Assembly: GCA_934167875.1 (NCBI GenBank)
Contig: CAKPMC010000004.1
Coordinates: forward strand, 21,214 to 85,213
DNA: 64,000 nt
Direction of reading: 5' to 3'
From: an uncultured Bacilli bacterium
GTDB taxonomy: Bacteria; Bacillota_I; Bacilli_A; RF39; UBA660
The notes under the pieces are model-generated. The model worked only from the letters and a program-made list of their open reading frames with translations, did no database searches and was not told the DNA's origin. The stretch's first letter is position 1. Every line of letters starts with the position of its first letter. Of this stretch, positions 25,094 through 47,804 are shown piece after piece. The position numbers were made by a program, and so were the translations under genes.

Positions 25094-25094
25094 T

Positions 25095-31099: not shown

Positions 31100-31115
31100 G
31101 AAAGGGGAAAATAAT

Positions 31116-31976: not shown

Positions 31977-32003
31977 TAAAAAGAATAAAAAGGGGAAAAT
32001 ATT

Positions 32004-33521
32004 ATGAAAGAGAATATGTTTGAGCAACTCGATTTTGGGGCTTTTAAAGAGTATATTGATAATGATGATATTACCGATATATCATATACAAATAATGGTC
32101 AAATTTGGCTACGTTCTTTGGAAAAAGGTTCTTATCGAGTAGAAAATCCCAATATAACTAATGCAGCTGTTGAAAAGTTAGCATTCCAATGTTCCAATGT
32201 TATGGGAACTACTTTCAATAATGCTAATCCCTTTTTGGATGCAGAAAGTCCTGAACTTCGTATGAACTTCGTTCACGAATCAATAGCTACTAATGGTATT
32301 GCTTTAGTTATTCGTAAAACTCCAGCTAAGATTCGTTTAAAAGAAGAAAACTTATTAAAAGAAGATTACGTAACTAAAGATATTCATGACTTTCTAATCC
32401 AATGTGTATTAGGACATTGTAATATAATTGTTTGTGGAGAAACTGGTAGTGGTAAAACTGAGTTTGTTAAATACTTAGCTAGCCATACTAAAGAAAATGA
32501 AAAAATAATAACCATCGAGGATACACTAGAACTTCACTTAGATAAAATATATCCACATCGTGATATAGTAGCTATGAAGACAAATAATATTGCTTCATAT
32601 TCTGATGTATTAGTTACCTGTATGAGACAAAATCCTAAATGGATACTATTATCAGAAGTACGTAGTGCTGAAGCCGTTAGTGCAGTTCGTAACTCAATAT
32701 CATCAGGACATAATATTTTATCAACAATCCACTCAGATAAAGCTAGTGCAATACCACATCGTATGTATTCACTTATGGAAACAGATATAGATGTAGAACA
32801 ATTCTTAAATACAATCTATCGTTATGTTCAACTTGGTGTACATATCAAAGCATATTATAGTCAGAAATATGGTAAGTTTCATCGTGAAATAGATGAAATA
32901 ACAGAATTTTATATTGATGAAGAAACTAATAAACCAATTTATAATACTATTTATCAAAAAACAATGACTGGTAAAGTAGTTAAGAAAAATCCAAGTAAAC
33001 ATTTACTTGACTATTTATTAGGACAAAATATTGATGTTAGTAATACTGCTTTTGGTGATGATGTAGGTAAGGAAAAAGATGGCGAAATTAACATGGATAA
33101 AATAGTAGAAGCTGAAAATAGTAACAGCGTTGAAACTAAACAGCCAGAAAATAAACCTATGCCAGTAGATACTAATGATAATCAAGCACCAGTTGAAGAA
33201 GGTAACAAACCAGTTATAAATAGTAGTAATAATTATGAAGTAAAAACACCAGTAATTAGTCCTGAAGTAAAACCTACAACTACTGAAATAAAACCACAAC
33301 CTTCAACTATACCAGTAACTAATACATTAGCTACAAATGATGTAGTACCACCTGTTATTCCTAACGTAGTATCAACACCAGACATAAAACCATCAGGTCC
33401 AATTAGACCTACACCAGATCAGGTAGTACAAATACCAAATCAAAATAATAATTCAAATATTAGTCAATTTTCAATAAATGACATCTTAGCAAATTCAGGA
33501 GATCATAGTAATAATCAGTAA
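32004..33521 (+). CDS. cpaF: Tad/Flp pilus assembly ATPase CpaF/TadA (VirB11/GspE superfamily) with ~140-aa Pro/Thr/Val-rich disordered C-terminal extension
   Basis: Walker A GETGSGKTEF, IEDTLEL (Asp box), Walker B ILLSEVR and a His box STIHS. The C-terminal 140 aa (PVEEGNKPVIN...KPTTTEIKPQPSTIPV...) is low complexity. Confidence 0.8.
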   Translation: MKENMFEQLDFGAFKEYIDNDDITDISYTNNGQIWLRSLEKGSYRVENPNITNAAVEKLAFQCSNVMGTTFNNANPFLDAESPELRMNFVHESIATNGIALVIRKTPAKIRLKEENLLKEDYVTKDIHDFLIQCVLGHCNIIVCGETGSGKTEFVKYLASHTKENEKIITIEDTLELHLDKIYPHRDIVAMKTNNIASYSDVLVTCMRQNPKWILLSEVRSAEAVSAVRNSISSGHNILSTIHSDKASAIPHRMYSLMETDIDVEQFLNTIYRYVQLGVHIKAYYSQKYGKFHREIDEITEFYIDEETNKPIYNTIYQKTMTGKVVKKNPSKHLLDYLLGQNIDVSNTAFGDDVGKEKDGEINMDKIVEAENSNSVETKQPENKPMPVDTNDNQAPVEEGNKPVINSSNNYEVKTPVISPEVKPTTTEIKPQPSTIPVTNTLATNDVVPPVIPNVVSTPDIKPSGPIRPTPDQVVQIPNQNNNSNISQFSINDILANSGDHSNNQ

Positions 33522-33532
33522 GGAGGGTAACT

Positions 33533-34426
33533 ATGGAACTACTTATTTTATTAGCCATTGCCTTATTTGTAATGTTATATAGACAATATCGTGGGCAAAA
33601 CGTATATAAATTCATAACAGAACAAGCAGGAATGGTATATGATAAATTTGCTCCTTATTCTTTTAAGGTAGTAAGAGAGAAAACTAAAGAATTAGGTCAG
33701 GAATATACACCAAAACAGTATATTCTTCAGAGTGTAGTATTTACTATATTTGCAGCGGTTATTTCTTATTTATATTTTTATAATATTTTTATATCCCTTA
33801 TATATGTAATAATAGCCAATGCATGTATTCCATACTTAGCTTACTTAAGATGTAAAAGAGTATATAGTGAATTTATATTTGAACAAATCCAAGTATATAC
33901 TACTAATACTATTATGGAATTTGCTACTACTCAAAGTTTTGTTAAATCACTAGAAGGAGTAGCAGCCAGTGGAGTATTAGAAGATCCAGTACTAACTGAT
34001 GTTAATATGATGATTTCTATGGCATATGAAAATGGTTCTATTGATGAATCAGTAGAATATATGAGTTCTAAATATCCATATTATATAGTTAAAAATATGC
34101 ATCAATTATTCTTACAGATTACTAAAGAAGGAGCTAAAGATTCAGGAGAATCACTTGAAAATATGCAACTTGATATCGATATGCTTGTTGAAAGTGTATA
34201 TCGTGATCGTATTGATAGAGCTAACTTCCATAAATCATTCTTAAAATATGGTGTTATGTTGTACTTAATGGTAATGCTAGTTCAATATCTGTTAGGAAAA
34301 GAAACCTATATAGCTATTTTAAGTAATCCACTTATGATATGTATTCTTCATGGTATTTTAATAATCAACAGTTATTTTCTTCTAAAAGGAGAAAAATATT
34401 ATAACGAGAATGTAGGTGGAGAATAA
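33533..34426 (+). CDS. tadB: Tad pilus assembly inner-membrane protein TadB-like (T2SS-F family)
   Basis: 297 aa. One N-terminal TM, a cytoplasmic helical domain, then 2-3 C-terminal TMs. Directly follows cpaF. Confidence 0.6.
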   Translation: MELLILLAIALFVMLYRQYRGQNVYKFITEQAGMVYDKFAPYSFKVVREKTKELGQEYTPKQYILQSVVFTIFAAVISYLYFYNIFISLIYVIIANACIPYLAYLRCKRVYSEFIFEQIQVYTTNTIMEFATTQSFVKSLEGVAASGVLEDPVLTDVNMMISMAYENGSIDESVEYMSSKYPYYIVKNMHQLFLQITKEGAKDSGESLENMQLDIDMLVESVYRDRIDRANFHKSFLKYGVMLYLMVMLVQYLLGKETYIAILSNPLMICILHGILIINSYFLLKGEKYYNENVGGE

Positions 34427-35211
34427 TGGAAGTAATTATTTGTGGAGCTCTTATCTTAGGAGTATTACTTTATAATAAAACAGTAGATGGTAAAAAGTTT
34501 GTTCAAGATAATCAAGATATTTTCTACTTACTAAAAGAAAGTGATTATGACTTCTTAGTAGCTGCCAAATATGGTGAAAAAGTTGATCCTAATGTTTTAT
34601 TTAATAAAAGATTAAAAATGGCTTTTATTACTATGGTAATATTTCTATTTATATTTTTAACAGAATTATCAGTTCTTAATGTTGTTTTATCATTATTTGT
34701 TGGTTATATTGTTTTTAAATCTAATTATACATCTTTAAAAAAGTATTATAAGAAACATTTACATGATATAGATGTAATGTTGCCATACTATTTAAAGGGT
34801 CTAGAAATTTTAATTCAACATTATACTGTACCAGTAGCATTAGCTAAATCAATAGATGATGCACCAGAAATATTTAAACCTGGACTAAGAAATCTAATTG
34901 CTAAAATTGATGCAGGTGATTATAGTATTGATCCATATATGGAATTTGCTAATGAGTATCCTGTTAGAGATTCAATGCGTATGATGAGATTACTATACCG
35001 TTTAGGTTTAGGTAAACAAGAAGATAAACAAGAAAGATTATTAATGTTTTCAAGAACAGTTTCTAACTTACAAGCTAAGGCAAGAGAAACCAAGTATAAA
35101 GAAAGATTAAATCATATGGAAAGTCAAACTATGATAATGCTAGTAGCAACAGGTGCTGGTGTTATGGTACTTATCCTAATATCTATGCTTTATATGTTCC
35201 AGAATATTTAG
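34426..35211 (+). CDS. tadC: Tad pilus assembly inner-membrane protein TadC-like (T2SS-F family)
   Basis: 261 aa with the same topology as the preceding gene. Its start abuts the tadB stop. Confidence 0.6.
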   Translation: MEVIICGALILGVLLYNKTVDGKKFVQDNQDIFYLLKESDYDFLVAAKYGEKVDPNVLFNKRLKMAFITMVIFLFIFLTELSVLNVVLSLFVGYIVFKSNYTSLKKYYKKHLHDIDVMLPYYLKGLEILIQHYTVPVALAKSIDDAPEIFKPGLRNLIAKIDAGDYSIDPYMEFANEYPVRDSMRMMRLLYRLGLGKQEDKQERLLMFSRTVSNLQAKARETKYKERLNHMESQTMIMLVATGAGVMVLILISMLYMFQNI

Positions 35212-35218
35212 TATAATA

Positions 35219-35246
35219 AAAGTCAGAGTAATAGCTCTGACTTTTG
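35219..35246 (+). terminator. rho-independent terminator after tadC-like gene
   Basis: agtcagag-taatag-ctctgact followed by TTTT. Confidence 0.6.
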
Positions 35247-35276
35247 GATATAATTATGCATTAAAAGGAGTAGTAC

Positions 35277-36590
35277 ATGAACAAAAAAAATATATTGATA
35301 TATTTAACTTTTGTAATACTATTAATCATTGTCTCATGTTTATCTCAAACGGAATTAGATGGAGTTTGGGGTTATGGTTTTAGTTACAACATAGCTAGTG
35401 GACTTATTCCATATAGAGACTTTAATATGGTAGTAGGTCCATTATATAGTATTATTTTTTCAATATTTATAAAAATATTTGGGAATTATTTTTTAGTATT
35501 TTCTATACAAAGTGCACTTATATATGGATTAATTATGTTACCAATATATAAAAAGATAGGTTGGAAATCCATTTATATAATATTACTACTGGGATGTTGT
35601 TTAACAACTTTTGGTTATAATACTTTTTGTGCCATGTTAGTATTACTAATAATGTGTATAGAAGATAGTGATTATAAGTATAAAACAATGCTAACAGGAA
35701 TATTAATTGGTACAATAATAATGACAAAACACAATATTGGTATTTGCTTATTATTAGTATTTTTATTAATTAATTATAAAAAGAAACTACAAGTTTTAAG
35801 TGTTTTAATTCCAATAATTCCAACAATTATTTATTTAATTGTCAACAATACCTTTTATTCATATATTGATTTTTGTTATCTTGGACTTGGTAAATTTTTA
35901 GATAATTTATATATAGATATTTTCACAATTCCTATAATAATTTATGTCATATATTTTATAATAAAAAATTATAGAATAAATAAAGATAAAATAATTCTTT
36001 ATTTATTAGCATTTCAAGTAATGGTATTTCCAATATTTGATCAGGGGCATATTTTACCAGCATTGATTCCATTTACATACTATATATTTGCTAAAAACGA
36101 ATATCCAAAAGTAAAATTTTATTTAAGCTATTTTATTATAATAGGAATATCAGTTAATACTATTTCCAACTTAGTATTAACAAAAGTATATATGAATAAT
36201 GATTATTTATTTTTACAAAGAGTAAAAACTGAAACCATAACATATCTTGATAATTACTCAAAATACCTAGAGAAAAACAAAGATAAAAAAATATATTTAT
36301 TACTAGATAATGCATATTTAATAAAAATATATCGCAATGAAAATCCAACTTTTTATGATTTAATAAATATGGGAAATTTAGGTAGTAATGAGCAAAAGTA
36401 TATAGACAATATGTCAAAGGAATGTGCTAATAAGAAGTGTATGTTTATTTTAGATAAAAGATACTTTGTAAAAAAATTATATGGTGAACAAAGATCAGAA
36501 ACATTTAAAAAATATACCATAAATAATGCTAATTATTTAGAAACATTACCATCTGGAGATAGAGTATATGTTAATTATGTAAATGAATAA
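35277..36590 (+). CDS. polytopic membrane protein (about 11 TM) with C-terminal soluble domain; possible GT-C-like glycosyltransferase within the Tad cluster
   Basis: 437 aa. The first extracytoplasmic loop has ELDGVWGYGFSYN...PYRDF. Extremely AT-rich. Confidence 0.3.
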   Translation: MNKKNILIYLTFVILLIIVSCLSQTELDGVWGYGFSYNIASGLIPYRDFNMVVGPLYSIIFSIFIKIFGNYFLVFSIQSALIYGLIMLPIYKKIGWKSIYIILLLGCCLTTFGYNTFCAMLVLLIMCIEDSDYKYKTMLTGILIGTIIMTKHNIGICLLLVFLLINYKKKLQVLSVLIPIIPTIIYLIVNNTFYSYIDFCYLGLGKFLDNLYIDIFTIPIIIYVIYFIIKNYRINKDKIILYLLAFQVMVFPIFDQGHILPALIPFTYYIFAKNEYPKVKFYLSYFIIIGISVNTISNLVLTKVYMNNDYLFLQRVKTETITYLDNYSKYLEKNKDKKIYLLLDNAYLIKIYRNENPTFYDLINMGNLGSNEQKYIDNMSKECANKKCMFILDKRYFVKKLYGEQRSETFKKYTINNANYLETLPSGDRVYVNYVNE

Positions 36591-36672
36591 TATAAAAAAA
36601 ATTAAAAAATATAGTAAAGTTTAAAAAATATGATATAATAAAAATGTATATATAATAAAGGAGGAGTTATTA

Positions 36673-36858
36673 ATGAAAGAAGCAACTGGAGAATTAAATA
36701 TGACAGTAGTTACTATTATAGCTATAGGTGCAGTAATTGCATTCTTCTGGTTCATGTGGCCACAAATAAGAAATACTATTCAAGGAACTTGGAATGGTAT
36801 AGATTCAGGAAAAGATTGCATTAAAAATCCAGATAGTTGTAATACAAAAGCTGAATAA
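36673..36858 (+). CDS. Flp-type pilin candidate (61 aa, single TM, C-terminal Cys pair)
   Basis: MKEATGELNMTVVTIIAIGAVIAFFWFMW... is a short polar leader ending in Gly, followed by a hydrophobic helix. Strong AAGGAGGAG RBS. Confidence 0.4.
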   Translation: MKEATGELNMTVVTIIAIGAVIAFFWFMWPQIRNTIQGTWNGIDSGKDCIKNPDSCNTKAE

Positions 36859-36893
36859 TATAAAGATTTAATTGTTAGAAAAGCGGTGATAGT

Positions 36894-37415
36894 GTGAAAG
36901 ATGCTATAAGTGGTGCATTGACACTACAAATAATTTTAATATTTATGATTATTATTAATTGTTACTTAGCTTTTAGTGTTAATTACACTAAAGCTTTTCG
37001 TATTAAGAATGAAATACGTAACATTATTGAAAAGAACGAAGGATTAACCTGTTCAGCAGTAAATCAAATAAATGATTTAATGTTGAAGGTTAATTATGGC
37101 GTTCAAAGCGGTGAAAGAAAATGCCCTGAAGATTATGAAACAGCAGCACTAAATAATGGATTATTCTGTTATAAATACCAAAAAGTAGATGTAACAGGTA
37201 CATCAAATCAAGGTTCAACATATAAAGGAGCTTATTATACGGTACTAACATTTGTTGATGTAGATATACCAATATTTAATAAAATATTTCCTGAAATAGC
37301 TCTTTTAAATGAAACTTTCACAAGTAAAGGTGAAACATCATTGATTTACTCTTCAGGAGAAATTGGTAGTGGATTACCAGATGATTGTTCAAAAAGTTCC
37401 ACTGCTAGCGAATAG
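36894..37415 (+). CDS. TadE-like pseudopilin candidate
   Basis: MKDAISG/ALTLQIILIFMIIINCYLAFSV N-terminus of prepilin-like topology, followed by a 140-aa hydrophilic domain. GTG start. Confidence 0.4.
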   Translation: MKDAISGALTLQIILIFMIIINCYLAFSVNYTKAFRIKNEIRNIIEKNEGLTCSAVNQINDLMLKVNYGVQSGERKCPEDYETAALNNGLFCYKYQKVDVTGTSNQGSTYKGAYYTVLTFVDVDIPIFNKIFPEIALLNETFTSKGETSLIYSSGEIGSGLPDDCSKSSTASE

Positions 37416-37429
37416 AAAAAGGTGAAATT

Positions 37430-38404
37430 ATGAATGTAATTATATCTAATGAAAGACAAGCAGAATTAGCAAACCTAGATATTGAAATTATAAAATCTAT
37501 TCATGGCGTATTTGAAGTAGATGAGTTAATTCAAATGTTTTCTAATTTCTTCTTTGGAAGAATGATACTTGATTTAACTGCATTAAAAGACTATAAAGAT
37601 GTACGTAATTTACAGAAATTATCAATGTCATTAGATGTTGAAAAAATTATAGTTTTACTTCCAGATACACCAGAGTGTTTAGCACCTAGATTCCTATCTA
37701 GATTAATTTCAATGGGAATCTATAACTTCACCACTAATATAGATGGCGTTAATTATCTATTAACTAATCCAAATACATATCGTGATGTTGCTCATCTACA
37801 TCAAATTGATGAACAACCAGAACCACAAGTTATAAACAATGTTGGAGTAGCTATGGGTGGTAACAGTAGTACAATTTTATCTACTGGTGGAAATTATATT
37901 TTAGGAATTAAAAATGTAACCGAACATTCAGGTGCTACTATGTTAACATATATGCTTAAAAATGTTATTAAGGATATGGGAAGAAGTTCATTAGCAATAG
38001 AAGTTGATAAACGAGATTTTGTTTACTTCAATGATAAAGATATGATATCTATAGATAATGCTAATCTAGCTAATGAAGTTTTAAAGCATAGAGATACCAA
38101 TGTAATTATAATTGATTTAAATAAAGAAGGCAGTGAAGATGTATGTAATGAAGTACTATACTTAATTGAACCTTCTACTATTAAATTAAATAAATTAATG
38201 AGAAGAGATCGTAAAGCTTTTGAAAAATTAGCAGGCAAAAAAGTAATCCTTTCTCAAAGTATCTTATCAGATAGTGATATCAAAGAATTTGAATATGAAG
38301 CAAATATAAAAGTTTTCTTTGTTATGCCACCATTAGATGAGAGAAGCAAAAATACCGAAGTTTTACAAGATTTACTAGCTAGACTTGGAATAAGCAACTA
38401 CTAG
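37430..38404 (+). CDS. TadZ/CpaE-like protein: N-terminal receiver-like domain plus ParA/MinD-fold domain with degenerate Walker A
   Basis: The N-terminus has a CheY-like alternating pattern (KIIVLLPDTPE). The GVAMGGNSST segment replaces the KGGxGKT P-loop, and VIIIDLNKEGS is a Walker-B-like hhhhD segment. Confidence 0.4.
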   Translation: MNVIISNERQAELANLDIEIIKSIHGVFEVDELIQMFSNFFFGRMILDLTALKDYKDVRNLQKLSMSLDVEKIIVLLPDTPECLAPRFLSRLISMGIYNFTTNIDGVNYLLTNPNTYRDVAHLHQIDEQPEPQVINNVGVAMGGNSSTILSTGGNYILGIKNVTEHSGATMLTYMLKNVIKDMGRSSLAIEVDKRDFVYFNDKDMISIDNANLANEVLKHRDTNVIIIDLNKEGSEDVCNEVLYLIEPSTIKLNKLMRRDRKAFEKLAGKKVILSQSILSDSDIKEFEYEANIKVFFVMPPLDERSKNTEVLQDLLARLGISNY

Positions 38405-38407: not shown

Positions 38408-38436
38408 TTGTCAAAAAATGTAAATAATTTTATAAT
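38408..38436 (+). promoter_or_regulatory. sigma-A promoter (TTGTCA - 17 nt - TATAAT), with a second TTGACT-17-TATTAT just downstream
   Basis: Near-consensus hexamers immediately upstream of the VirB2-like gene. Confidence 0.5.
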
Positions 38437-38496
38437 ATATTGACTAATAAAGCCAATTATTATATTATTTAATTAGTATTAAGGAGGGAATTTGTT

Positions 38497-38826
38497 ATGA
38501 ATTTAGTACAAATAATGTCTTGTCCTAGTGACTTAGTTCCTATTTTTAAATTTTTAAAGAATGGAATTTATCCTATTATCCAAATAGGTATCCCAATCAT
38601 TTTAATTATTATGGGAAGTATTGATTTAGGAAAAGCTGTAATGTCTAGTGATGATAAAGAAATCAAAGGAGCAACAAGCAAGTTAATCAAACGTGCAATT
38701 GCTGCTGTAGCTGTATTCTTTGTTACAACAATCGTTTCATTATTAATGAATTTGTTTGCTTCATCTGGTTCTGATATTGATACAGGTTCAACAAACTGGG
38801 CAGATTGCTGGACAAAATTAGATTAA
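38497..38826 (+). CDS. small two-TM protein, VirB2/TrbC-pilin-like T4SS subunit candidate
   Basis: 109 aa with two hydrophobic helices separated by a charged loop (GSIDLGKAVMSSDDKEIKGATSKLIKR). Flanked by a strong promoter and terminator. Paralogous to the C-terminus of the next gene. Confidence 0.45.
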   Translation: MNLVQIMSCPSDLVPIFKFLKNGIYPIIQIGIPIILIIMGSIDLGKAVMSSDDKEIKGATSKLIKRAIAAVAVFFVTTIVSLLMNLFASSGSDIDTGSTNWADCWTKLD

Positions 38827-38842
38827 TAAATTGAATTAAAAT

Positions 38843-38875
38843 AATAGTAAAATCATTTTACTATTATTTTTTTTA
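38843..38875 (+). terminator. rho-independent terminator after the VirB2-like gene
   Basis: aatagtaaaa-tca-ttttactatt followed by ATTTTTTTT. Confidence 0.7.
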
Positions 38876-38921
38876 TGATATAATTACCTTGGTATATTAT
38901 AATTTCAAGGAGTGTAACTTT

Positions 38922-40259
38922 ATGAAAAAACTTAACAAAATCATATTTTATTCAATATTTTTAACTTTTTTAATAATCACAAATGGTGATAACGTATATG
39001 CAGATGTAGCTTGGCCAGGAGTAGATAGCAGCCAAATACCAAGTAATTATAAAGGCATGGAGTATTGTGTTTATACAACCCAGAATGTTTATTTAGATAC
39101 TTCTGGATTTGAAAAACTTAGTAAATGGTATTCAAATAAAAGTTACATTTTAATTCATGATAGTAAAAATAATGAAATTAAATTTTTAGACAGAAAAGGT
39201 ACAGTAGTAACTACAGCAAGTGAATATGCCTGGGCAACTGGTGGAATTAATCAAAATATATATTTTTCACAAAATTTATATAACTATTTAGTACCAAATG
39301 GGGAATTACAGTGTAAGAAACTATATTTTTATGAACGAAAAAAAGGTTCAAATTTATTTTCAAATTCAGGTTCACTCGAAATATTAACAGATGTCAGTGA
39401 ATATTTTGGAGCAAATTATAATAGTGAGGATTATGGAGTTCAAATTCTACAGCAAACTGGTGTTGAGGGAACAAGATACGGTGAAAATTGGTGTAAAGTT
39501 AATTATGAAAAATTAAAAGCTATTACTGAACCATATTATAGTCAAATTGATTCAATTAATAATGCATACTATCAAATGTCAGAACAAAAAGAATATCAAA
39601 TTGGTGATGCCAAAAAAGGAAAAGAGTATTTAGCATCTGCTAAAGCTCTAAATGAAAATGCACGAAATGCTATTGCTGATTTGCACTTAAATGATCAAAA
39701 TAGTGATGTTAATGTTTCTAATTGTGATGCCACTTTTAATAATGAATATCAAAAAATAATTCAAAACTTAGAGTCTGCTTTGAAACAATTTAGTACATAC
39801 CAAAGAACTATAAATAGTAAACTAACCTCAGCTAAAAATAGCGGTAAGATTACGGAAGAGGAATATAAAAAAGAAAAAGAAGAAATGGATGGTCTAAAAA
39901 CAGAAACAGATACAGCATTAGAAGAGTGGGAAGAATATCGAAAAAATATTAATTTTGGTAAAAAGATAGAAGATGCTGGTTGCGAAGGGTTGCTTGGAAA
40001 AGATCTATTAGATGACATTTCTCAAGTATTAACGTGGGTAAGAATTGCAGTACCTATTTTAGTTATCTTACTTGGAAGTACTGATTTCGCAAGAGCAGTA
40101 TTATCAGATGATCAGCAAGAGTTAAAAAAGGCAACTAGCAGATTTGCTAAACGTTGTATTATTGCTGTAGCTATTTTCTTCATACCATCTATAATAATGT
40201 ATTTATTAAGTTTCATAGATAAAATATATGATGTCTCTTGTGACATAAGGTTATGGTGA
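38922..40259 (+). CDS. secreted coiled-coil protein fused to a C-terminal VirB2-like two-TM domain
   Basis: Signal peptide, a central E/K-rich coiled coil, and a C-terminus LGSTDFARAVLSDDQQELKKATSRFAKRCIIAVAIFFIPSII that is paralogous to the 109-aa protein (MGSIDLGKAVMSSDDKEIKGATSKLIKRAIAAVAVFFVTTIV). Start placed at MKKLNK after an AAGGAG RBS. Confidence 0.5.
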   Translation: MKKLNKIIFYSIFLTFLIITNGDNVYADVAWPGVDSSQIPSNYKGMEYCVYTTQNVYLDTSGFEKLSKWYSNKSYILIHDSKNNEIKFLDRKGTVVTTASEYAWATGGINQNIYFSQNLYNYLVPNGELQCKKLYFYERKKGSNLFSNSGSLEILTDVSEYFGANYNSEDYGVQILQQTGVEGTRYGENWCKVNYEKLKAITEPYYSQIDSINNAYYQMSEQKEYQIGDAKKGKEYLASAKALNENARNAIADLHLNDQNSDVNVSNCDATFNNEYQKIIQNLESALKQFSTYQRTINSKLTSAKNSGKITEEEYKKEKEEMDGLKTETDTALEEWEEYRKNINFGKKIEDAGCEGLLGKDLLDDISQVLTWVRIAVPILVILLGSTDFARAVLSDDQQELKKATSRFAKRCIIAVAIFFIPSIIMYLLSFIDKIYDVSCDIRLW

Positions 40260-42379
40260 TGTTAATGAACAATTTAATTTTTACAATGGCTAGTCGTGGT
40301 TGGGCATGGAATATTATCCGTTCACTATTTGGATGGTTAGATTCAGTTGCATACTTTTTATTTTCATCAGTAATGCAATTAATTTTTGATATTATATCTG
40401 TCACATCTGATCCAGCCTTTAATAATTTTTACAATGGTATACACTCAAGAATATATGCAATAATTGCCATATATATGTTATTTAAAATAACAATTTCATT
40501 GTTAACCTATTTAGTTAATCCTGATTCAATGAATGACAAAGAACGTGGCGTTGGTAAAATGGCAACTAGAGTTATAGTAGCGCTAGTAATGCTAATTGCC
40601 TTTCCTAATGCATTTTCATTTATTAATAAAATTCAACCTCATATTATAGAAGCAATTCCACGTGTTATTCTCGGAACAGAAACTACATCTTCTAGTGATA
40701 GCAGTGGTAGTGATTTAAGCAGTCAAATGGGGGATGTTGGAAAACAAATAGCTTTTGATACCTACAATGGTGTTTGGTTTAACGATAATTGTGCAGACAG
40801 TAATAATACAGATGCAGGCAAGTGTTTTGCTTATACAGATGATAGTGGAAAAGCTACAGTAGCAGTTGCTGTTGACCATATCAATGATGCAGCTGATGGT
40901 GATTCAGGTCAGTATAGATACAATTATTATCCATTAGTTGGATTTGTCACAGCTTTAATCATGACTATTATTTTACTTGGATATTGTGTTGATATATCCA
41001 TTCGTGTATTCAAATTAATAATTTTACAAATTATAGCGCCAATTCCAATCATTAGCTATATAGATCCAAAATCATCAAAAGATGGTGCATTTTCTAAGTG
41101 GTTAAAGATGGTTGGAAGTGTTTATTTAGATGTATTTATAAAACTAGCAATTATTTACTTTATTTTATTAGTTATATCTGAGTTAATAACAAGTGGTACG
41201 ATTGCTAATTTGACATTAAGTTTGTTTGGCAAACAAGGTACTTTCCGTTCAGGAATGGTAATGGTAGCTCTAGTTATGGGATTGTTCTTTTTTGCAAAAG
41301 AAGCACCAAAATTTATTGCCGATGCACTTGGAGTTAAAATGAGTGAAAATAGTCACTTATTTGGTGGACTTAGTAAGATAGCAGCCGCAGCAACTTTAGG
41401 GGCAGGTGCTATTGGTTCAGGAATTGCATCAGGTAGATCAAGCTTTATGGCTGATGAAGCTAATGGAAAAAATCATAATGTTGGACGTATATTTAAAAAT
41501 GTTGGTGCAGGCCTAGTTGGTGCAGCATCAGGACTTGGAACAGGTGCAAACGCAGCCTTGAATGCCAAAGATCATCATGCTAAAGCAGCTATGGATGCTA
41601 TGATAAAGCGTAACGCTAAAGTAAGTGCAATAGGAGCAGAGGGTGGTACTACTCTTGGAGGAGCAGCATCACTTATGGAAACTATGTTTACAGGTCAGAC
41701 ACCAATCGAGAGAATGGAAGCTGATTGGAAAAAACAAGAAGAAGCAATTAAATACGATAAGCAAAAAAATGCTGAACGTAAAGCCATCATGGATAGGGCA
41801 TCATCTAAAGGCTTGGAAAGTTATAAAACATCAGGAAATATAAGTAATTTTCAAGGAGCAAGTGGAAAAATATATAATTTGGACAATGCAAATGCCGCAA
41901 GTTATAATTCAGTTCTTGAAGCTGCAATGTCTGGTAATGGTATTTATCATACTTATTCTAATGGATATGGTGCCACATTTACACAGGAACAATATAATGC
42001 ACTAAGTGATGATCAAAAAGCTAATTGGACAGAAAGTGGTTCATTCTTTGATTTCAATGGTCAGTCTATTGATATAAGAGATGCAAAAATGTTGCAACAT
42101 GAAATTAACGATGCCAATATAGCTGATTATGCTGAACAAGCTTTAGCAGGTACAATAGATGATGCTGTTATTACTGGAGCAGACGAAAGATTTGCAGCTG
42201 CTAATAATGGTGTCGGTGTAGAAAGAACCTTCGGTGGTGCTGATGGTCTAAAAGCTACATTTGGAAGAGTTAATAATAACATTACTAGTCGTGAATTAGA
42301 AATTGCTAATCAGAAAAATGATCAAAATGTTAAGCGCCAACAAGCTAACAATAAAGTATTTAATAAGAATGGCAATTAG
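40253..42379 (+). CDS. VirB6/TrbL-like polytopic T4SS membrane protein with Gly/Ala-rich C-terminal domain (Tn916 Orf15 / TcpH-like)
   Basis: At least 7 TM helices in the first 370 aa, then a 330-aa hydrophilic G/A/N-rich domain. Positioned before the VirB3/VirB4 genes. Confidence 0.55.
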   Translation: MVMLMNNLIFTMASRGWAWNIIRSLFGWLDSVAYFLFSSVMQLIFDIISVTSDPAFNNFYNGIHSRIYAIIAIYMLFKITISLLTYLVNPDSMNDKERGVGKMATRVIVALVMLIAFPNAFSFINKIQPHIIEAIPRVILGTETTSSSDSSGSDLSSQMGDVGKQIAFDTYNGVWFNDNCADSNNTDAGKCFAYTDDSGKATVAVAVDHINDAADGDSGQYRYNYYPLVGFVTALIMTIILLGYCVDISIRVFKLIILQIIAPIPIISYIDPKSSKDGAFSKWLKMVGSVYLDVFIKLAIIYFILLVISELITSGTIANLTLSLFGKQGTFRSGMVMVALVMGLFFFAKEAPKFIADALGVKMSENSHLFGGLSKIAAAATLGAGAIGSGIASGRSSFMADEANGKNHNVGRIFKNVGAGLVGAASGLGTGANAALNAKDHHAKAAMDAMIKRNAKVSAIGAEGGTTLGGAASLMETMFTGQTPIERMEADWKKQEEAIKYDKQKNAERKAIMDRASSKGLESYKTSGNISNFQGASGKIYNLDNANAASYNSVLEAAMSGNGIYHTYSNGYGATFTQEQYNALSDDQKANWTESGSFFDFNGQSIDIRDAKMLQHEINDANIADYAEQALAGTIDDAVITGADERFAAANNGVGVERTFGGADGLKATFGRVNNNITSRELEIANQKNDQNVKRQQANNKVFNKNGN

Positions 42380-42399: not shown

Positions 42400-42723
42400 G
42401 TGAATGATAATTATTTGATTCCTGCTAATACGAAAAGAGGACAATTAATATTAGGATTGTTTACTCCAATTGACTTAATAATCTTTTTAGGTGGATTGGC
42501 AGTAACCTTCCTTCTAATATCGATTTTACCAATGGATATTACTTGGGTAGCAATACTTTCAGTAGCACCGGGTATAATTTGTTCATTATTAGTTGCTCCA
42601 GTTGCCTACTACCATAACGTTAGGCAGCTAATTATTGAAATATATAAGTATTTTTCAGGAAGAAATCGTTTTGTATGGAAGGGTTGGTGTTTTCTAGATG
42701 AATCAGAAGATAAATCAAAGTAA
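42400..42723 (+). CDS. VirB3-like / PrgI-family small T4SS membrane protein
   Basis: 107 aa with two TM helices (LILGLFTPIDLIIFLGGLAVTFLLISIL...VAILSVAPGIICSLLVAPVAYY). Immediately upstream of, and overlapping, the VirB4 gene. Confidence 0.55.
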   Translation: MNDNYLIPANTKRGQLILGLFTPIDLIIFLGGLAVTFLLISILPMDITWVAILSVAPGIICSLLVAPVAYYHNVRQLIIEIYKYFSGRNRFVWKGWCFLDESEDKSK

Positions 42724-43249
42724 ATGGACTGAAGATTGGATAAATATTCAATCAATTACCAATGGTATGATTGTTTTACCAAATCAAGAAAAAGTATCAG
42801 GAGTAAAAATAACTCCACGTAATATCTTTATCCTAGATGAAGAATCACAAACAAGTGTATTAATAGCACTTAAGAATTTTTATAATACAATAGATTATGA
42901 GTTTTGGTTAGTTGTTGCCGATAGACCAGTTGATATATCAGTATATCTATCACAATTGCAACTTCAATACCAAAATCAAACTAATCAACAAGTAAGAAAA
43001 TTAATTAGTCAAGATATTCAAAAAGGTAATTACTTCATGAATAATAATGTTGTTGATACCGAATATTTCATCTTATTCAAAGAAAAAAATGTTGAACTTA
43101 TGCAAAAGAAGATTCGTTCTCTTATAAGCGGACTTTCAACAGCAGGTCTAATAGCTAGTCAAACTAGTAATGAAGATCTAAGAATAATACTAGATAATTT
43201 CTTAAACGGTGGTTCAACCACTACATTTGGGACGGTGATGCCTCTATGA
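42698..43249 (+). CDS. VirB4-family T4SS ATPase, N-terminal fragment (split gene)
   Basis: Typical N-terminal region of Gram-positive VirB4 proteins (IVLPNQEKVSGVKITPRNIFILDEESQ). Ends at a TGA that overlaps the ATG of the next ORF. Confidence 0.55.
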   Translation: MNQKINQSKWTEDWINIQSITNGMIVLPNQEKVSGVKITPRNIFILDEESQTSVLIALKNFYNTIDYEFWLVVADRPVDISVYLSQLQLQYQNQTNQQVRKLISQDIQKGNYFMNNNVVDTEYFILFKEKNVELMQKKIRSLISGLSTAGLIASQTSNEDLRIILDNFLNGGSTTTFGTVMPL

Positions 43250-45033
43250 GTATTTTCAAATCTGAAGTTGCTCCAAAAGGACTACAATTTAATCCAGGAG
43301 ATTTCGTTGTTAGCGGTAAATATGCTACTATCTTAACAGTAGTATCTTACCCTAAATACATTTATCCAGGATATTTATCATCACTAACAAGTATGTCTGG
43401 TATAAAGGTAGTTGCAAAACATATACCAGTACCTTTTTCAACAATGTCTAAAATGTTAAATAAACAAATTGCTGACTTAAAAACTAGATATCAAGATGAA
43501 AGAGATAATACTATTCGTGAAAGAATTAGACTTGATTATGAATCATTAGAACAATTCATAACTATGTTAGCTGGAAGTCAAGCTAAAATATTTGATTATC
43601 AAATGCATATCATGATTACAGCTGATAGCAGAGAAGATCTTGAATTAAAGAAAATAAATGTTAAAAACTACTTAGATGCTATGGAAATGAAAGGTGTTTC
43701 ACTTCGATTTGAACAGGAAAAGGTTCTTAAATCAATAGTACCAATTTTTCCTAAACAAGATGTAGAAAATCGTATTGGTACACCAATACCATCACCAACC
43801 ATTGCAGCAATGTATCCGTTTATCTTTGATAGTATAAAAGATCCAGGATTATCTACTTTATTAGGTGTTGATTTTTCTGGAGGTGTTATCTTATTTAATC
43901 AATTCTTATATCAAATTAAAAAAGAAAACAACCGTAATAATGCTAACCTTATAATTTTAGGTACTTCAGGATCAGGTAAATCAACAGCAGCTAAACTAAT
44001 GTTAAGAAGCCATATTCGTAATGGCTACCAGATAGTAGCAATTGATCCAGAAAATGAATTATATGAAATGGCTACAAACTTTGGTGGTGAATCAATCGAC
44101 CTTGGTAAAGGTGGGGAATATGGAATGGTTAACCCACTTCAAATCGTAATTGATGCTGATGAAGATGAAATTAAACAAGGATTAGGTTATACCGTTTTAA
44201 CTAGAACACTTCAATTCCTAAAAGGATTTATGAGATATTATGATCCATCTATTGAAGAAGATGTCCTAACTATGTTTAGTGAAGTAGTTCAAGATACATA
44301 TCGTCGTTTTGGTATCGATTTCAATAGTGATTTCTATAATTATCAAGCAAGTGATTATCCAACATTCTCAGATGTTTATGCAACTATTAAAGGCAGATTA
44401 TTATCTATGACAGATCAAACTCAGGAACGTACTATTATGGAAAAACTTGAATTAAAAGTAAGACCACTAACTCAAGAGTTAAAATATTATTTTGATGGTC
44501 ATACTACGGTTAATCCTAATACTGATTTTATTGTCTTTAATATAAAAGAATTAATGAATTCTGCTGATAATATTCGTAATGCTTTATTCTTTAACATTTT
44601 AAAATATGCTTGGGGCTTATGTCTTGATAAAAGCATAAATACATGTTTAATGGTAGATGAAGCCCACGTATTATTATCAGGAAGTAATGCTCTAGGAGCT
44701 GAATTCTTATCTCAAGTTCAACGTCGTGCTCGTAAATATAATACAGGTTCAATTATCATTACTCAACAACCTAGTGATTTCGCAGCACCTAGCGTTATTA
44801 TGCATGGTAAAGCTATATTCGATAATGCATCTTATTATTTAGTAATGGGCTTAAAGAAACAAGCAGTTGATGACTTAGGCAAATTAATTGATTTAAATGA
44901 AAATGAAAAAGAAAGTATAAAACGTTATTCACAAGGGGAAGCATTATTTGTTTGTGGAAATCGTCGTATGCGTATTAACGTTATTTTAACTCCAGAAGAA
45001 CTAGAATCATTTGGTTCAGGTGGAGGTTTATAG
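43246..45033 (+). CDS. VirB4-family T4SS ATPase, C-terminal ATPase part (Tn916 Orf16 / TcpF / PrgJ-like)
   Basis: Walker A LGTSGSGKST and Walker B LMVDEAHVLL. Combined with the upstream ORF the length is about 778 aa, typical of VirB4. The frame stays open upstream of the ATG. Confidence 0.8.
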   Translation: MSIFKSEVAPKGLQFNPGDFVVSGKYATILTVVSYPKYIYPGYLSSLTSMSGIKVVAKHIPVPFSTMSKMLNKQIADLKTRYQDERDNTIRERIRLDYESLEQFITMLAGSQAKIFDYQMHIMITADSREDLELKKINVKNYLDAMEMKGVSLRFEQEKVLKSIVPIFPKQDVENRIGTPIPSPTIAAMYPFIFDSIKDPGLSTLLGVDFSGGVILFNQFLYQIKKENNRNNANLIILGTSGSGKSTAAKLMLRSHIRNGYQIVAIDPENELYEMATNFGGESIDLGKGGEYGMVNPLQIVIDADEDEIKQGLGYTVLTRTLQFLKGFMRYYDPSIEEDVLTMFSEVVQDTYRRFGIDFNSDFYNYQASDYPTFSDVYATIKGRLLSMTDQTQERTIMEKLELKVRPLTQELKYYFDGHTTVNPNTDFIVFNIKELMNSADNIRNALFFNILKYAWGLCLDKSINTCLMVDEAHVLLSGSNALGAEFLSQVQRRARKYNTGSIIITQQPSDFAAPSVIMHGKAIFDNASYYLVMGLKKQAVDDLGKLIDLNENEKESIKRYSQGEALFVCGNRRMRINVILTPEELESFGSGGGL

Positions 45034-45059
45034 AAAAGTAGTAAAGGCAGGTGAGCTGT

Positions 45060-47804
45060 ATGGATGAAGAACAAGAAAATTTAGAAAAGCAAAAGCAAGC
45101 TGATAATAATCAAAAGACAGCTCACGTTGCTGGTAAAGCAGCAGCAACTTACTATGGAGGAGCTGCTGGTGGTCAACTATATGATGCAGCAAGTAAAACT
45201 AAAGTAGGGCAAGCAATAGAAAAGAATGCAGCTAAAAATATCAGTAACAATCCTGCTTTAAATAGAGCCAGTCAAAAGTTAAATGATGTTGGCGCTATGG
45301 ATGCCGCTGACAAGGGAATTGATTTAGCTGGTGGCAGTATGGGCAAGGGGGCACCTAATCCATCAGGTGGTGGCATGAACAAGCCAGGACTATCACCATC
45401 TACAGGTAGTGAAGGTGGTAAACCAGGTTTAGATCAAGGTAATAAAACTTCTAATTCTGGAGAGTCATCAAATTCAAATACAAATACCTCAGGTGGTAAA
45501 AAGAAATTAAACAATCTTTTCGGAAGTGGCGAAGGTAATGCCGATAGCTCAGATAGTTCAACTGAAAATGAAAGTTATGCTAGCAAAATATTTAAATTTA
45601 TAAAAAGTCATCCTAAACCATTCATCTCTATGGGTGGTGGTTTTCTACTAATATTAGTACTAATCATAGCAGTTATTTCGATAGCTGATTCGGTAGTGGG
45701 TGGCGTTATTGATTTTTTCAACAACGTAAAAGACACACTAATAGGTTTCTTCACAAAAGATGAAGAAGAATTAATGAATGATTATTATGATACATTAAAA
45801 AATACTCAAATAGATATCAATGAAGATTATAGTGTTTGTATTGATGTAAATTTAATAACAGCTGCTCTTACAGTTAATGTAGCTGCTGATGATTTTGTTA
45901 ACGATGGTGAACAGATTGATCCATCTGGAGACGGCGACACTACAACTAATGAAGATGGTACTCAATCTACTAAACCATATAAAAAAATGACAAAGCAAGT
46001 AAAACTTTTAGCATATATGCAACTTATGACTAGTAAATATGGTTTAGATAAAAGTTATAAAGAAACTAATGGTAGTTATTGTAGTAGTGACAATAAAACG
46101 CCAGTGTTAGTAGATAGTAGCAAAGTAAATGATTATGAAGGTGAAAAAACACCTTGGGTAAGTATAGATAGTTCAAATTTTGATTTAATATCTAGACATG
46201 ATTTGGGTGAAAATCTTAACTTTAAATTATTAAAAACAACGTCAGAAAAAAATTATGCCTATTATTTATATTATCCTAAATATAATTCTGATGGTAGTTG
46301 TGATGATTCATATGCTAAAGGTGCATTACCAGAAGAGAAAAAAGAGTTAAGTATAGGTGATTTAAAGACAAAAGAAGATTCTGTTTTCTACTGGAATTTA
46401 ATTAACTCATTTATACCAGATTATTATAAAGACTATTTACCAGATAAAGATGCTGCTAATTATGATGAAGCTGTAAAGAAAATAGCTGATGATATATATC
46501 TATTATATGCTGAAACAGGACCTAGCCAAACATGTGCTAGTAGTTATCAAGGACCATCTAGTCTATGTCCAAATGGTATAACCGTAGTTGGTAAAGATGG
46601 TAATGCTAGTACAATCGATTTTGAAGAATACATAGCTGGAGTTGTTTCAAATGAAGCTTATAGTAGTGAAGGAATGGAAGCACTAAAGGCACAAGCAGTA
46701 GCAGCTCGTACCTATGCTATTAATTTAACTAATTATTGTGAAAAAACTATTTCTAATAGTACCAATGCTCAAACATTTACCAAAGATATTAATGATAGAG
46801 CACGAGAAGCAGCAACCTCAACCGCTGGTGAAATACTAGTGGATTCAAATGGTAAAATCTTTGGAGCTCAGTATGATTCTTTCTGTTATGATGATAAAGA
46901 CTGTCCAGATGCTAAGAAAAATGCTGATGGAACATATTCAGTTACTTATACCAAAGTTCCTAATGGAGAAAAACATGTAATTACTTTAAGTGATCCTAAA
47001 CAATATGGAAGAATAACGCATGGTAAAGGACATGCTCATGGTATGAGTCAGTTATTATCATATCAAATGGCAAAAGAAGGAAAAACTTATCAAGAAATAT
47101 TATCTTATTTCTATTCAGATGGTGTAACAATTAATTTAGTATTATCACCAACTACTACTGAAGGTGGTACGATTATTAATAAACCAATTGAACACTATTT
47201 AAGTGCCGTTGGAACCAACATTAATAATATGAATCAAACTATCTATAGCCAAGTAAGAAAAGCAGGAGTTGGAACTAGAGAAGGTGTTGTGGCAGCTGCC
47301 GTAACCTTAATTAATAACTTCTATTCACAAACAGGATATCTTCTTCCATATGAGTTATATCCTAGTGGTAAATATTCAGGATATGGAATGGATCCAAGTT
47401 GGGGTACTAACACAGGAAGATCCGATTATCCTTCAAATGGTTTAGATTGTAGTGGCTTTGTTTCATGGGCTATTCATAATGGTGGCTTCAAGTACGAAGT
47501 AAAAAGTGCTAAAGGATGGGGCGATTCCAGCGCAAGAAGACCTTGGACTAAAGGAATGACTGATACCTCAGCTAAACCAGGTGATTTAATCTATAACGCA
47601 CCTCAAAGTGCTAATGGTACTACAGGTCATATTAGAATGATAGTTGAAGTTACCAAAGAAGGTTATGTTGTAGCTGAAGCAAGTTCTAGAAAAAATGGTG
47701 TTAGAATCAAAACCATTTCCTTTACAAGTACAGGTAATTATTATTTAGTTAATATGGATAACTATTATGCCAGTGCTACAAAAGTAACAGATTACCCACA
47801 ATAG
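45060..47804 (+). CDS. T4SS-associated cell-wall hydrolase: N-terminal G/S-rich region, TM, SpoIID/LytB-like domain and C-terminal NlpC/P60 peptidase (CwlT/TcpG/Orf14 analogue)
   Basis: SpoIID-like EYIAGVVSNEAYSSEGMEALKAQAVAARTYAIN and NlpC/P60 Cys-His region GLDCSGFVSWAIHNGG...TGHIRMIV. One TM near residue 200. Confidence 0.7.
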   Translation: MDEEQENLEKQKQADNNQKTAHVAGKAAATYYGGAAGGQLYDAASKTKVGQAIEKNAAKNISNNPALNRASQKLNDVGAMDAADKGIDLAGGSMGKGAPNPSGGGMNKPGLSPSTGSEGGKPGLDQGNKTSNSGESSNSNTNTSGGKKKLNNLFGSGEGNADSSDSSTENESYASKIFKFIKSHPKPFISMGGGFLLILVLIIAVISIADSVVGGVIDFFNNVKDTLIGFFTKDEEELMNDYYDTLKNTQIDINEDYSVCIDVNLITAALTVNVAADDFVNDGEQIDPSGDGDTTTNEDGTQSTKPYKKMTKQVKLLAYMQLMTSKYGLDKSYKETNGSYCSSDNKTPVLVDSSKVNDYEGEKTPWVSIDSSNFDLISRHDLGENLNFKLLKTTSEKNYAYYLYYPKYNSDGSCDDSYAKGALPEEKKELSIGDLKTKEDSVFYWNLINSFIPDYYKDYLPDKDAANYDEAVKKIADDIYLLYAETGPSQTCASSYQGPSSLCPNGITVVGKDGNASTIDFEEYIAGVVSNEAYSSEGMEALKAQAVAARTYAINLTNYCEKTISNSTNAQTFTKDINDRAREAATSTAGEILVDSNGKIFGAQYDSFCYDDKDCPDAKKNADGTYSVTYTKVPNGEKHVITLSDPKQYGRITHGKGHAHGMSQLLSYQMAKEGKTYQEILSYFYSDGVTINLVLSPTTTEGGTIINKPIEHYLSAVGTNINNMNQTIYSQVRKAGVGTREGVVAAAVTLINNFYSQTGYLLPYELYPSGKYSGYGMDPSWGTNTGRSDYPSNGLDCSGFVSWAIHNGGFKYEVKSAKGWGDSSARRPWTKGMTDTSAKPGDLIYNAPQSANGTTGHIRMIVEVTKEGYVVAEASSRKNGVRIKTISFTSTGNYYLVNMDNYYASATKVTDYPQ

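Follow-up and report, generated by a model that had tools for sequence, protein, structure and literature searches.

In the present study we analysed a 64,000-nucleotide (nt) stretch of DNA, hereafter the window, from an uncultured Bacilli bacterium (RF39; UBA660; assembly GCA_934167875.1, contig CAKPMC010000004.1, positions 21,214-85,213 of the forward strand). It holds two neighbouring genes whose products share a module of two transmembrane (TM) helices, and these genes lie between a Tad-like (type IVc) pilus block and a block for a type IV secretion system (T4SS). The shorter gene encodes a stand-alone protein of 109 amino acids (aa), here called A-type, and the longer one a secreted protein, here called B-type, which carries the same module at its C-terminus. 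Both are considered here as candidate VirB2-like pilins. The window has a G+C content of about 25%, almost every gene stands on the plus strand, and the locus is flanked by housekeeping genes (GlmS, BipA, LspA). The features of the locus are collected in Table 1.

Table 1. Features at and around the two module genes (positions of the window)
Feature	Position	Strand	Remarks
Tad-like (type IVc) pilus block	30665..38404	+	always precedes the A-type gene; synteny in loci L001-L168
Two overlapping sigma-70-like promoter candidates	38408..38468	+	upstream of the A-type gene
A-type, putative VirB2-like pilin paralog	38497..38826	+	109 aa, leaderless; AAGGAGG ribosome-binding site upstream
A/T-rich 15-bp perfect hairpin with U-run, candidate terminator or attenuator after A-type	38838..38878	+	-13.2 kcal/mol, z=-2.3
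B-type, putative modular VirB2-like pilin	38922..40259	+	445 aa; signal peptide, beta-rich domain, four-helix region, C-terminal hairpin
Fast-evolving extracellular domain of B-type	39003..39956	+	beta domain aa 28-188, helical region aa 189-345
C-terminal pilin module of B-type	39981..40256	+	aa 354-445; Cys354, helix/TM1, loop LSDDQQELKKATSRFAKR, TM2, Cys440, ...CDIRLW terminus
VirB6-like polytopic membrane protein	40253..42379	+	708 aa; presumed assembly platform; syntenic in all T4SS-bearing loci
VirB3-like (107 aa), VirB4 N-terminal (183 aa) and VirB4 ATPase (595 aa) reading frames	42400..45033	+	NF045975
SpoIID/CHAP cell-wall hydrolase (917 aa), lipoprotein at the VirB8 position (245 aa), VirD4 coupling protein (757 aa)	45051..50835	+	

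The paralogous gene pair

The two proteins are paralogous, as an earlier reading of the letters alone (the sequence-only reading) had proposed. BLASTP aligned the 109-aa with the 445-aa protein at 26 of 59 identical positions (44%), with 75% positives and no gaps (E=7e-18, composition-based statistics), and the peptides quoted in that reading and both open reading frames (ORFs) were found where it had placed them. The shared part had been taken to be the last 45 aa of the longer protein; it is wider, about 99 C-terminal residues, and includes a Cys before helix 1 and a Cys after helix 2. A hidden Markov model (HMM) of the module covers residues 4-107 of the A-type protein and 347-445 of the B-type protein (358-456 of the 456-aa maximal ORF). 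The length of 456 aa had to be revised as well, as TTG 38889 opens only the maximal ORF. The likely start is ATG 38922, with an AGGAG 9 nt upstream of it; the resulting 445 aa match the length of the homolog P0121.

In the A-type protein, TM1 (about aa 24-41) and TM2 (about aa 67-89) enclose a charged loop (about aa 42-66), and Cys9 and Cys104 are placed in the outward-facing tails. The AlphaFold 2 (AF2) model is a helical hairpin (residues 11-50 and 53-89; predicted local distance difference test, pLDDT, 76.6) in which residue 8 lies beside residue 100. The protein is extremely conserved: 789 homologs were found, 65-99% identical among the 120 listed, all annotated as hypothetical and from gut metagenome-assembled genomes labelled Bacilli or Tenericutes, and the loop GSIDLGKAV.SSDDKEIK is invariant. 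Among the module relatives as a whole, the loop (SSDDKEIK/LSDDQQELKK), one Pro in TM1 and the paired Cys are fixed. By a simple heuristic, a signal-peptide-like N-terminus was found in 0 of 81 A-type and in 61 of 63 B-type proteins. The A-type protein was also considered as a Flp/Tad (type IVc) pilin and rejected, given its two TM helices without a prepilin motif and the separate 61-aa Flp-like gene at position 36673.

The B-type protein of the window begins with a signal peptide (aa 1-27, ...VYA/DV, the slash marking its end). In its AF2 model (mean pLDDT 82.8, mostly above 85 in the ectodomain) a beta-rich part (about 48-186) is followed by four long helices (190-342) and by the hairpin (359-435, with helices 359-394 and 398-435). 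The secreted part had been described as a coiled coil, which fits the helical portion but leaves out the beta-rich domain that precedes it. The ectodomain, of roughly 330 aa and attached to the outward-facing N-terminus of the module, contains four conserved Cys (49, 131, 191 and 268) and gave no match in Pfam, PDB or BFVD; since the fold searches returned nothing significant, it stands without a recognisable relative. Against PHROGs, only a sub-significant tape-measure match to the coiled-coil region was obtained (E=0.0037). Within the window's B-type subfamily, mean pairwise identity is 76% for the module, 34% for the beta domain and 25% for the helical region. In the only pair close enough for the ratio of nonsynonymous to synonymous substitution rates (dN/dS), the value was 0.49 for the ectodomain, which is not above 1, and 0.17 for the module.

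Across the loci, B-type proteins range from 123 to 626 aa. The forms of 123-154 aa consist of signal peptide and module only, and the shortest example (...DQVFA/ANCNGIL...) has the shape of a canonical VirB2-like precursor; other B-types carry unrelated N-terminal domains without a Pfam match. In view of this range, the 445-aa protein belongs to a graded series with a variable ectodomain between leader and module, and the description of the long protein as a pilin module that bears an added extracellular domain at its N-terminus is supported. The 3' end of the B-type gene overlaps the start of the VirB6-like gene in the window (40253 versus 40259), and across the loci B-type lies next to VirB6 throughout, with a median gap of about 12 nt between the end of the B-type gene and the VirB6 ORF. 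Another protein of about 370-415 aa, anchored by one TM helix at its N-terminus and weakly matching DUF6273, often sits between the A-type and B-type genes (L013:10420-11532, L018:10435-11553, L110:5741-6988 and many others; L numbers denote related loci) and is absent between the two genes of the window. It is typical of loci with a short B-type, and where the T4SS is absent it stays after the A-type gene, such loci usually carrying an N-anchored form of about 370 aa there. This protein may take the place of the fused ectodomain as a surface partner with a gene of its own.

The stand-alone gene had been said to possess a promoter and a terminator of its own, and the comparison of loci upholds this, though the motifs of the window are by themselves not above chance in AT-rich DNA (34 promoter sites found against 38 expected). 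The two promoter candidates of the window are TTGTCA-17-TATAAT (11/12 matching positions, 38408-38436) and TTGACT-17-TATTAT (10/12, 38440-38468). Of 79 related loci, 78 have a match of at least 10/12 ahead of the A-type gene, compared with 4% of random windows from the same loci. Downstream of the gene, a hairpin of at least 10 bp followed by a T-run was found in 52 of 80 loci compared with 5 of 405 control windows, and the stem sequences vary between loci with the pairing preserved.

Conservation was followed in two samples. For the pilin-centred sample, a scan of one genome per species gave 134 species, and 80 loci were fetched; the VirB4-centred sample, which is independent and comes from metagenomes, comprises 40 loci with at least 7 kb upstream. 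The common order is Tad-like block, A-type, zero to two B-type module genes, VirB6, VirB3, the N-terminal and C-terminal VirB4 frames (VirB4N, VirB4C), hydrolase, lipoprotein and VirD4. Synteny with VirB6 and VirB4 is strict in well over a hundred loci, and the A-type gene lies one to three genes upstream of VirB6. At least two module genes are present in 58 of 81 pilin-centred loci. In the VirB4-centred sample a module gene abuts VirB6 in 36 of 40 loci, and in 33 of the 40 it does so together with the gene at the TadZ position and the A-type gene, so that the module pair is conserved in homologous loci. The species with the locus include Ca. Faecenecus, which is the GTDB genus CAG-988 of the order RF39 (PMC8035907). 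We found no account of this locus in the literature on RF39 or RFN20 with T4SS or Tad. In addition, nine loci (L005, L008, L014, L016, L043, L081, L090, L099 and L147) hold two, once three, tandem module genes besides the A-type gene; these bear differing ectodomains and form small pilin arrays reminiscent of Patescibacteria. When the module profile was searched against 1.84 billion cluster representatives, 9,558 proteins were obtained at E<=1e-3 and 4,992 at E<=1e-10. The top matches are mostly of 200-565 aa with the module at the extreme C-terminus, and the 129 top matches beyond those already in our set were tested further.

Pilin likeness and the competing readings

The Pfam family PF18895 (T4SS_pilin) matched the A-type protein over positions 14-71 of its 71 (E=5e-4, 20.5 bits) and the B-type protein at aa 366-427 over nearly the whole profile (E=9e-3, 16.6 bits). 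It was also matched at E<=1e-3 by 59 of the 129 module relatives (best 1.9e-7), and a precomputed PF18895 annotation is present on two relatives. The model NF045849 (Mbov_0395 pilin-like) covered the A-type protein at positions 10-78 of its 80 (E=0.03, 13.9 bits, short of its cutoff of 40) and was matched at E<=0.01 by 3 of the 129. According to the models and topology signals, both proteins are alpha-helical hairpins with their ends outside and the conserved charged loop in the cytoplasm; the N-out topology of the B-type protein is fixed by its signal peptide and ectodomain, and positive charges (Lys/Arg) are found in the loop. Two TM helices, a short charged cytoplasmic loop and outer termini are the layout of a VirB2 pilin, which both proteins show, and both are encoded in the T4SS operon near virB6, virB3 and virB4. 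Hence, the VirB2-like character that the sequence-only reading had assigned to them is borne out by the two-TM hairpin, by the PF18895 matches and by the position upstream of VirB6, VirB3 and VirB4, but not by the TrbC/VirB2 family PF04956. The structure models had been proposed as a check for a TrbC/VirB2 fold. They gave a helical hairpin for both proteins, but the fold searches were uninformative, since two helices in a hairpin form a generic shape. Searches of PDB sequences with the profiles built here gave nothing meaningful, the comparison of the module profile with PrgG of plasmid pCF10 (hhalign) was not significant, and neither a VirB5/TraC fold nor a sequence match of a VirB5-type tip adhesin was found for the pair.

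The Cys before helix 1 and the Cys after helix 2 are conserved in A-type and B-type proteins alike, and as both would lie outside the membrane, they probably form a disulfide that staples the ends of the subunit together. An extracellular disulfide is a reasonable inference from the conserved pair, from the adjacency of residues 8 and 100 in the AF2 model and from a thioredoxin-like lipoprotein encoded nearby. The latter (23009-23422, minus strand) has an LLMTGC lipobox, a thioredoxin fold and a CSAC (CxxC) motif; no other minus-strand ORF here could be given a domain. In seven related loci its homologs border the Tad/T4SS block on the 5' side in divergent orientation, in L018 directly beside the TadZ-position gene. 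It is a candidate extracytoplasmic disulfide oxidoreductase for Cys-rich secreted components.

On balance, we lean towards the reading that both proteins are VirB2-type subunits of a chromosomal T4SS that resembles the FATA class of mating-pair formation systems (MPF-FATA), the A-type being the abundant bulk subunit and the B-type a Sec-dependent, VirB6-coupled modular pilin whose outward ectodomain serves as a variable adhesin or tip. In this reading, VirB4 would power the removal of subunits from the membrane and their stacking on the VirB6 platform. The stack would cross the cell wall as a short conduit or pilus, and its lumen would be lined by the loop, as it is for PrgF_B2 and the Gram-negative VirB2. 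The A-type protein would supply the bulk of it, each subunit probably being stapled at its ends by the disulfide. The B-type protein would be incorporated sparsely or first, which would place its ectodomain at the tip or on the surface as a variable adhesin and give this modular pilin a VirB5-like role. The adjacent Tad-like pilus would probably make the initial contact with the target.

Several results weigh against this reading. Both window proteins score below the gathering cutoff of PF18895 (26.6 bits), and PF04956 matched neither of them. The alignment of the module profile with PrgF of pCF10 was not significant (hhalign, E=0.076). Foldseek gave nothing for either AF2 model, with no PDB match for the 109-aa model at E<=0.001. 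The division of labour into major and tip subunits is drawn only from expression signals and gene position, and we regard the interpretation as major and minor pilin as plausible but incomplete. The remaining points on this side concern the A-type gene and come from the arrangement of the loci. In most species the Tad-like block and the T4SS are physically linked, and four configurations were found: both blocks adjacent, Tad-like block with A-type only, T4SS with A-type only, and T4SS with B-type only among housekeeping genes. The Tad-like block and the A-type gene without a T4SS in the 6-10 kb downstream were seen in 11 of 66 informative pilin-centred loci. These 11 loci are scattered over the tree of TadB, TadC and the TadZ-position protein, which implies at least about 6 events, and inside one such clade the A-type gene is under purifying selection (dN/dS 0.07-0.24). 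Moreover, A-type distances track those of TadB (rho 0.49) better than those of VirB4C (0.27).

These same findings favour a division of roles in which the B-type protein is the only T4SS pilin and the A-type protein has been recruited, independently of the T4SS, to the Tad-like system or its TadZ-position partner, for example as a membrane hub acting through its invariant cytoplasmic loop. We think this unlikely, but it deserves to be taken seriously. The A-type gene always comes directly after the 324-aa TadZ-position gene. The B-type gene is absent from 11 of 11 T4SS-less loci and present in 54 of 55 that have the T4SS, and distances of the B-type module track VirB4C (rho 0.53). Furthermore, the T4SS blocks of L157, L159 and L161 have B-type, stand amid housekeeping genes and lack Tad and A-type genes over the 6-7 kb that precede them. 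On the other hand, no known Tad component is a two-TM hairpin, and the A-type protein is 44% identical to the T4SS-linked module and matches the same pilin profiles. It is also the sole pilin-like gene in four to five T4SS blocks: by HMM it is the only module gene near VirB6 in L041, L110, L134 and L139, and L113 is a possible further case, in which one analysis detected a second, leaderless module ORF of 106 aa. Taken with the B-type-only blocks, this means that either paralog can be the only pilin-like gene beside a T4SS. In L018 and L049, the A-type and TadZ-position genes stay with the T4SS while tadA, tadB and tadC are not adjacent. Since the T4SS block can sit elsewhere in a genome, the loci without it may also have their T4SS at another site.

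A reading that needs no pilus, and which we hold to be quite improbable, makes the module a non-polymerising membrane anchor or docking tag for variable surface proteins beside or inside the VirB6 platform, with the A-type protein as a headless competitor or regulator. In its favour, hundreds of proteins (200-565 aa) with unrelated N-terminal domains end in the module, and Gram-positive cells have so far not been observed to bear a conjugative pilus (bioRxiv 10.64898/2025.12.18.695078, discussion). The module also resembles weakly the first TM hairpin of the VirB6-like protein (40253-40650; aa 54-130; TM - LVNPDSMNDKERGVGKMATR - TM; hhalign E=0.0058 along the entire hairpin), and 18 of the 129 module relatives weakly matched the VirB6-like model NF045848. 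This likeness could stem from hairpin composition, from a real relationship or from mimicry between platform and pilin, or could reflect lateral packing against VirB6 instead of polymerisation. Near-invariant cytoplasmic loops and paired Cys in both paralog families would, however, be unusual for simple anchors, the shortest B-types, with nothing but signal peptide and module, would anchor nothing, and the PF18895 relationship and the PrgF-like gene position also speak for a pilin.

The sequence-only reading had named a holin-like hairpin as an outcome that would contradict it. That the module belongs to an unrelated small membrane protein (a holin-like hairpin, a bacteriocin-immunity protein or a toxin) near the T4SS by chance is disfavoured and in our view highly improbable. 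Small two-TM proteins are common and the fold searches gave only generic helical matches, but the N-out/C-out topology, the Sec signal peptide of the B-type, the strict synteny with VirB6 and VirB4 and the matches to pilin profiles argue against it. A phage holin in particular was rejected: the A-type protein has no PHROG match, no phage genes are nearby, and topology and signal peptide are inconsistent with a holin.

The adjoining T4SS and surface systems

The downstream block has the order of a T4SS. The VirB6-like protein matched the NCBIfam models MMCAP2_0566 (1.9e-12), pLS20_p028 (6e-8) and Mbov_0396 (1.3e-7), all below their cutoffs, and TrbL_4 weakly. VirB3 and VirB4 are encoded by three overlapping ORFs, which together tile the single 894-aa mycoplasma VirB4 model NF045975 (VirB4_plasma): its positions 99-276 correspond to the 183-aa ORF and 297-893 to the 595-aa ORF (E=1.9e-102). 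Nearly all related loci show the same split, so that it reflects a genuine arrangement of the genes and no frameshift error. VirB4C is unusually conserved, with a mean identity of 83% compared with 70% for TadB, and identity to plasmid VirB4s is at most 28-29%.

Among the 53 window ORFs scanned with Pfam there was no relaxase or integrase family, and the system looks chromosomal, as no relaxase was found. The relaxase plus integrase or transposase expected with the T4SS of an integrative and conjugative element (ICE) or conjugative plasmid is thus missing here, the only related ORF being a PD-(D/E)XK transposase-like one at 52555. A tblastn search with the A-type and VirB6-like proteins gave no match in 72,556 PLSDB plasmids. 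In one related locus, L018 (Clostridium sp. CAG:710, scaffold HF996843.1), a MobV/Mob_Pre relaxase (675-1922, Pfam E=5e-31) lies about 8 kb upstream of the TadZ-position, A-type and T4SS genes. It is the only relaxase noted, most related loci not having been scanned for relaxases, and tadA, tadB and tadC are missing in L018.

The Tad-like block upstream comprises genes for DUF5411, an RcpC/CpaB-like protein, the TadA ATPase, two platform-like proteins, a 437-aa membrane protein, the 61-aa Flp-like protein, a 173-aa TadE-like protein and the 324-aa protein at the TadZ position. This last one is named by position only, since neither Pfam, NCBIfam nor PDB sequence searches assigned it to TadZ/CpaE. 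The 437-aa polytopic protein (35277-36590) has no Pfam match, stands between the platform-like and Flp-like genes, and occurs in a minority of related loci (e.g. L005, L015, L028, L042, L048, L059, L071). Directly upstream of the Tad-like block is a sortase-dependent pilus/adhesin cluster (20333-27684) with a SpaA/thioester-domain protein, two sortases, and Ig-like/DUF6273 and DUF4352 proteins. With this cluster, the Tad-like block and the T4SS, three different surface-filament systems stand in about 30 kb. A further protein of 633 aa (59235-61136), adjoining a rhomboid protease gene (58023-59165), has an N-terminal prepilin methylation motif (PF07963) and resembles a very large type IV pilin.

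Comparison with known systems and significance

VirB2-like proteins were long thought to be absent from monoderm T4SSs (PMC12857230). In 2025, VirB2-like pilin arrays were reported in Patescibacteria with the help of PF18895 (PMC12102498), and PrgF_B2 of Enterococcus faecalis pCF10 was described together with candidates that lie near virB6 in about 95% of the plasmid classes of Gram-positive bacteria (ter Beek et al., bioRxiv 10.64898/2025.12.18.695078). Hence, the sequence-only reading went too far in calling such a subunit unusual for Gram-positive T4SSs (PMC12102498; bioRxiv 10.64898/2025.12.18.695078). PrgF_B2 is an experimentally essential VirB2-like protein without a leader, whose DD/R loop lines the modelled lumen (bioRxiv 10.64898/2025.12.18.695078). 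It shares with the proteins described here the small two-TM hairpin, the short, charged cytoplasmic loop with many Asp and Lys/Arg residues, and the position of the gene immediately before a VirB6-like gene; its loop SNDDPRTLDKG looks like the A-type loop SSDDKEIKGA. The pCF10 order prgF(B2)-(prgG)-prgH(B6)-prgI(B3)-prgJ(B4)-prgK...pcfC(VirD4) is also the order here, and about half of the Gram-positive plasmids likewise carry more than one VirB2-like candidate. In contrast to PrgF_B2 and the plasmids, to which no significant sequence similarity was found in the PrgF alignment given above, the present locus is chromosomal and relaxase-less and has two true paralogs, one of them with a Sec leader and often a large ectodomain, as well as a conserved Cys pair. 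No VirB5-like tip protein emerged from the plasmid study, which was limited to proteins of 50-150 aa (bioRxiv 10.64898/2025.12.18.695078).

With Patescibacteria, the locus shares PF18895, the only Pfam family matched here, and the position of the pilin genes, whose arrays adjoin MPF-FATA-like VirB4 and VirB6 (PMC12102498; PMC12857230). In both cases the T4SS is chromosomal, in Patescibacteria mostly relaxase-less, the hosts are uncultured monoderms with reduced genomes, divergent pilin paralogs stand in tandem, and there is a type IV-filament system too. The differences are that the present locus belongs to another phylum (Bacilli), that the window proteins remain below the Pfam cutoff, and that two to three genes are found instead of arrays of up to 11. 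Moreover, one paralog is here a fusion with a hypervariable ectodomain, and the locus is physically fused with a Tad-like block. The mycoplasma ICEs gave the best NCBIfam matches for VirB4 (the NF045975 value above) and for the VirB6-like protein, and their order of Mbov_0395 pilin-like (NF045849), Mbov_0396/MMCAP2_0566 VirB6-like and Mbov_0397 VirB4 genes is the same as here. All scores in the window, however, stay below the family cutoffs (13.9 versus 40 bits for the pilin-like model), the ICE hallmarks of a DDE transposase and a relaxase were not found, and VirB3/VirB4 is split into three ORFs.

The Gram-negative VirB2/TrbC pilins resemble the present proteins in that the precursor is a hairpin with a signal peptide (here the B-type) and that the ends are outside and the loop inside. 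The ends of the TrbC/VirB2 subunit are joined by cyclisation, and the Bartonella Trw system has multiple variable copies of VirB2 and VirB5. In place of cyclisation, the ends may here be joined by a disulfide. A variable, surface-exposed partner proposed in target binding is common to the VirB2 and VirB5 pair and to this locus, but there is here no PF04956 match and no separate VirB5, the adhesin-like domain being covalently fused to the pilin module. Unlike in Gram-negative systems, there are no genes for an outer-membrane complex, VirB9/10 or VirB11. The closest parallel in design is found in the modular type IV pilins PilB and PilC of Streptococcus sanguinis, in which a functional module is grafted on a pilin and the filament displays the adhesin (PMC8179133). 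These belong to an unrelated superfamily, with a single N-terminal helix, a class III signal peptide and a C-terminal graft, in contrast to the two-TM hairpin and N-terminal graft described here. Overall, the locus joins the known monoderm VirB2-like systems. It differs from them in the series of covalent ectodomain-pilin fusions, the pair of a leaderless and a leader-bearing paralog, the Cys pair, the linkage to Tad and the chromosomal, relaxase-less setting in RF39-type Bacilli.

How monoderm T4SSs build a conduit through the cell wall began to be answered only in 2025, with PrgF_B2 and the patescibacterial arrays, and a tip or adhesin subunit has not been identified. The series from bare module to large ectodomain, with the graft on the terminus expected to face outward, is a directly testable candidate for a pilus-displayed adhesin. 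The fixed residues emerge from a comparative set that comprises thousands of metagenomic module relatives and over 160 syntenic loci. The locus is also evidence that an abundant uncultured lineage of the human and animal gut has retained in its small genomes a chromosomal T4SS, apparently non-conjugative and firmly linked to a Tad-like pilus, and this retention hints at dependence on contact with other cells. A more far-reaching proposal, which we put forward as speculative and rather doubtful, is that the relaxase-less Tad and T4SS genes form a vertically inherited supercluster of RF39-type Bacilli for a cell-cell interaction organelle. Its conduit would be made from two VirB2-like paralogs, with a disulfide instead of cyclisation, and one of them would be the first modular VirB2 pilin with a hypervariable adhesin head in the VirB5 tip role. 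If true, the organelle would be comparable to the essential pair of T4SS and type IV pili in epibiotic Patescibacteria, and the head of the modular pilin would fill the tip role of VirB5, a role still without a known protein in monoderm T4SSs. The pair of proteins described here may show how single-membrane bacteria build and decorate a surface conduit.

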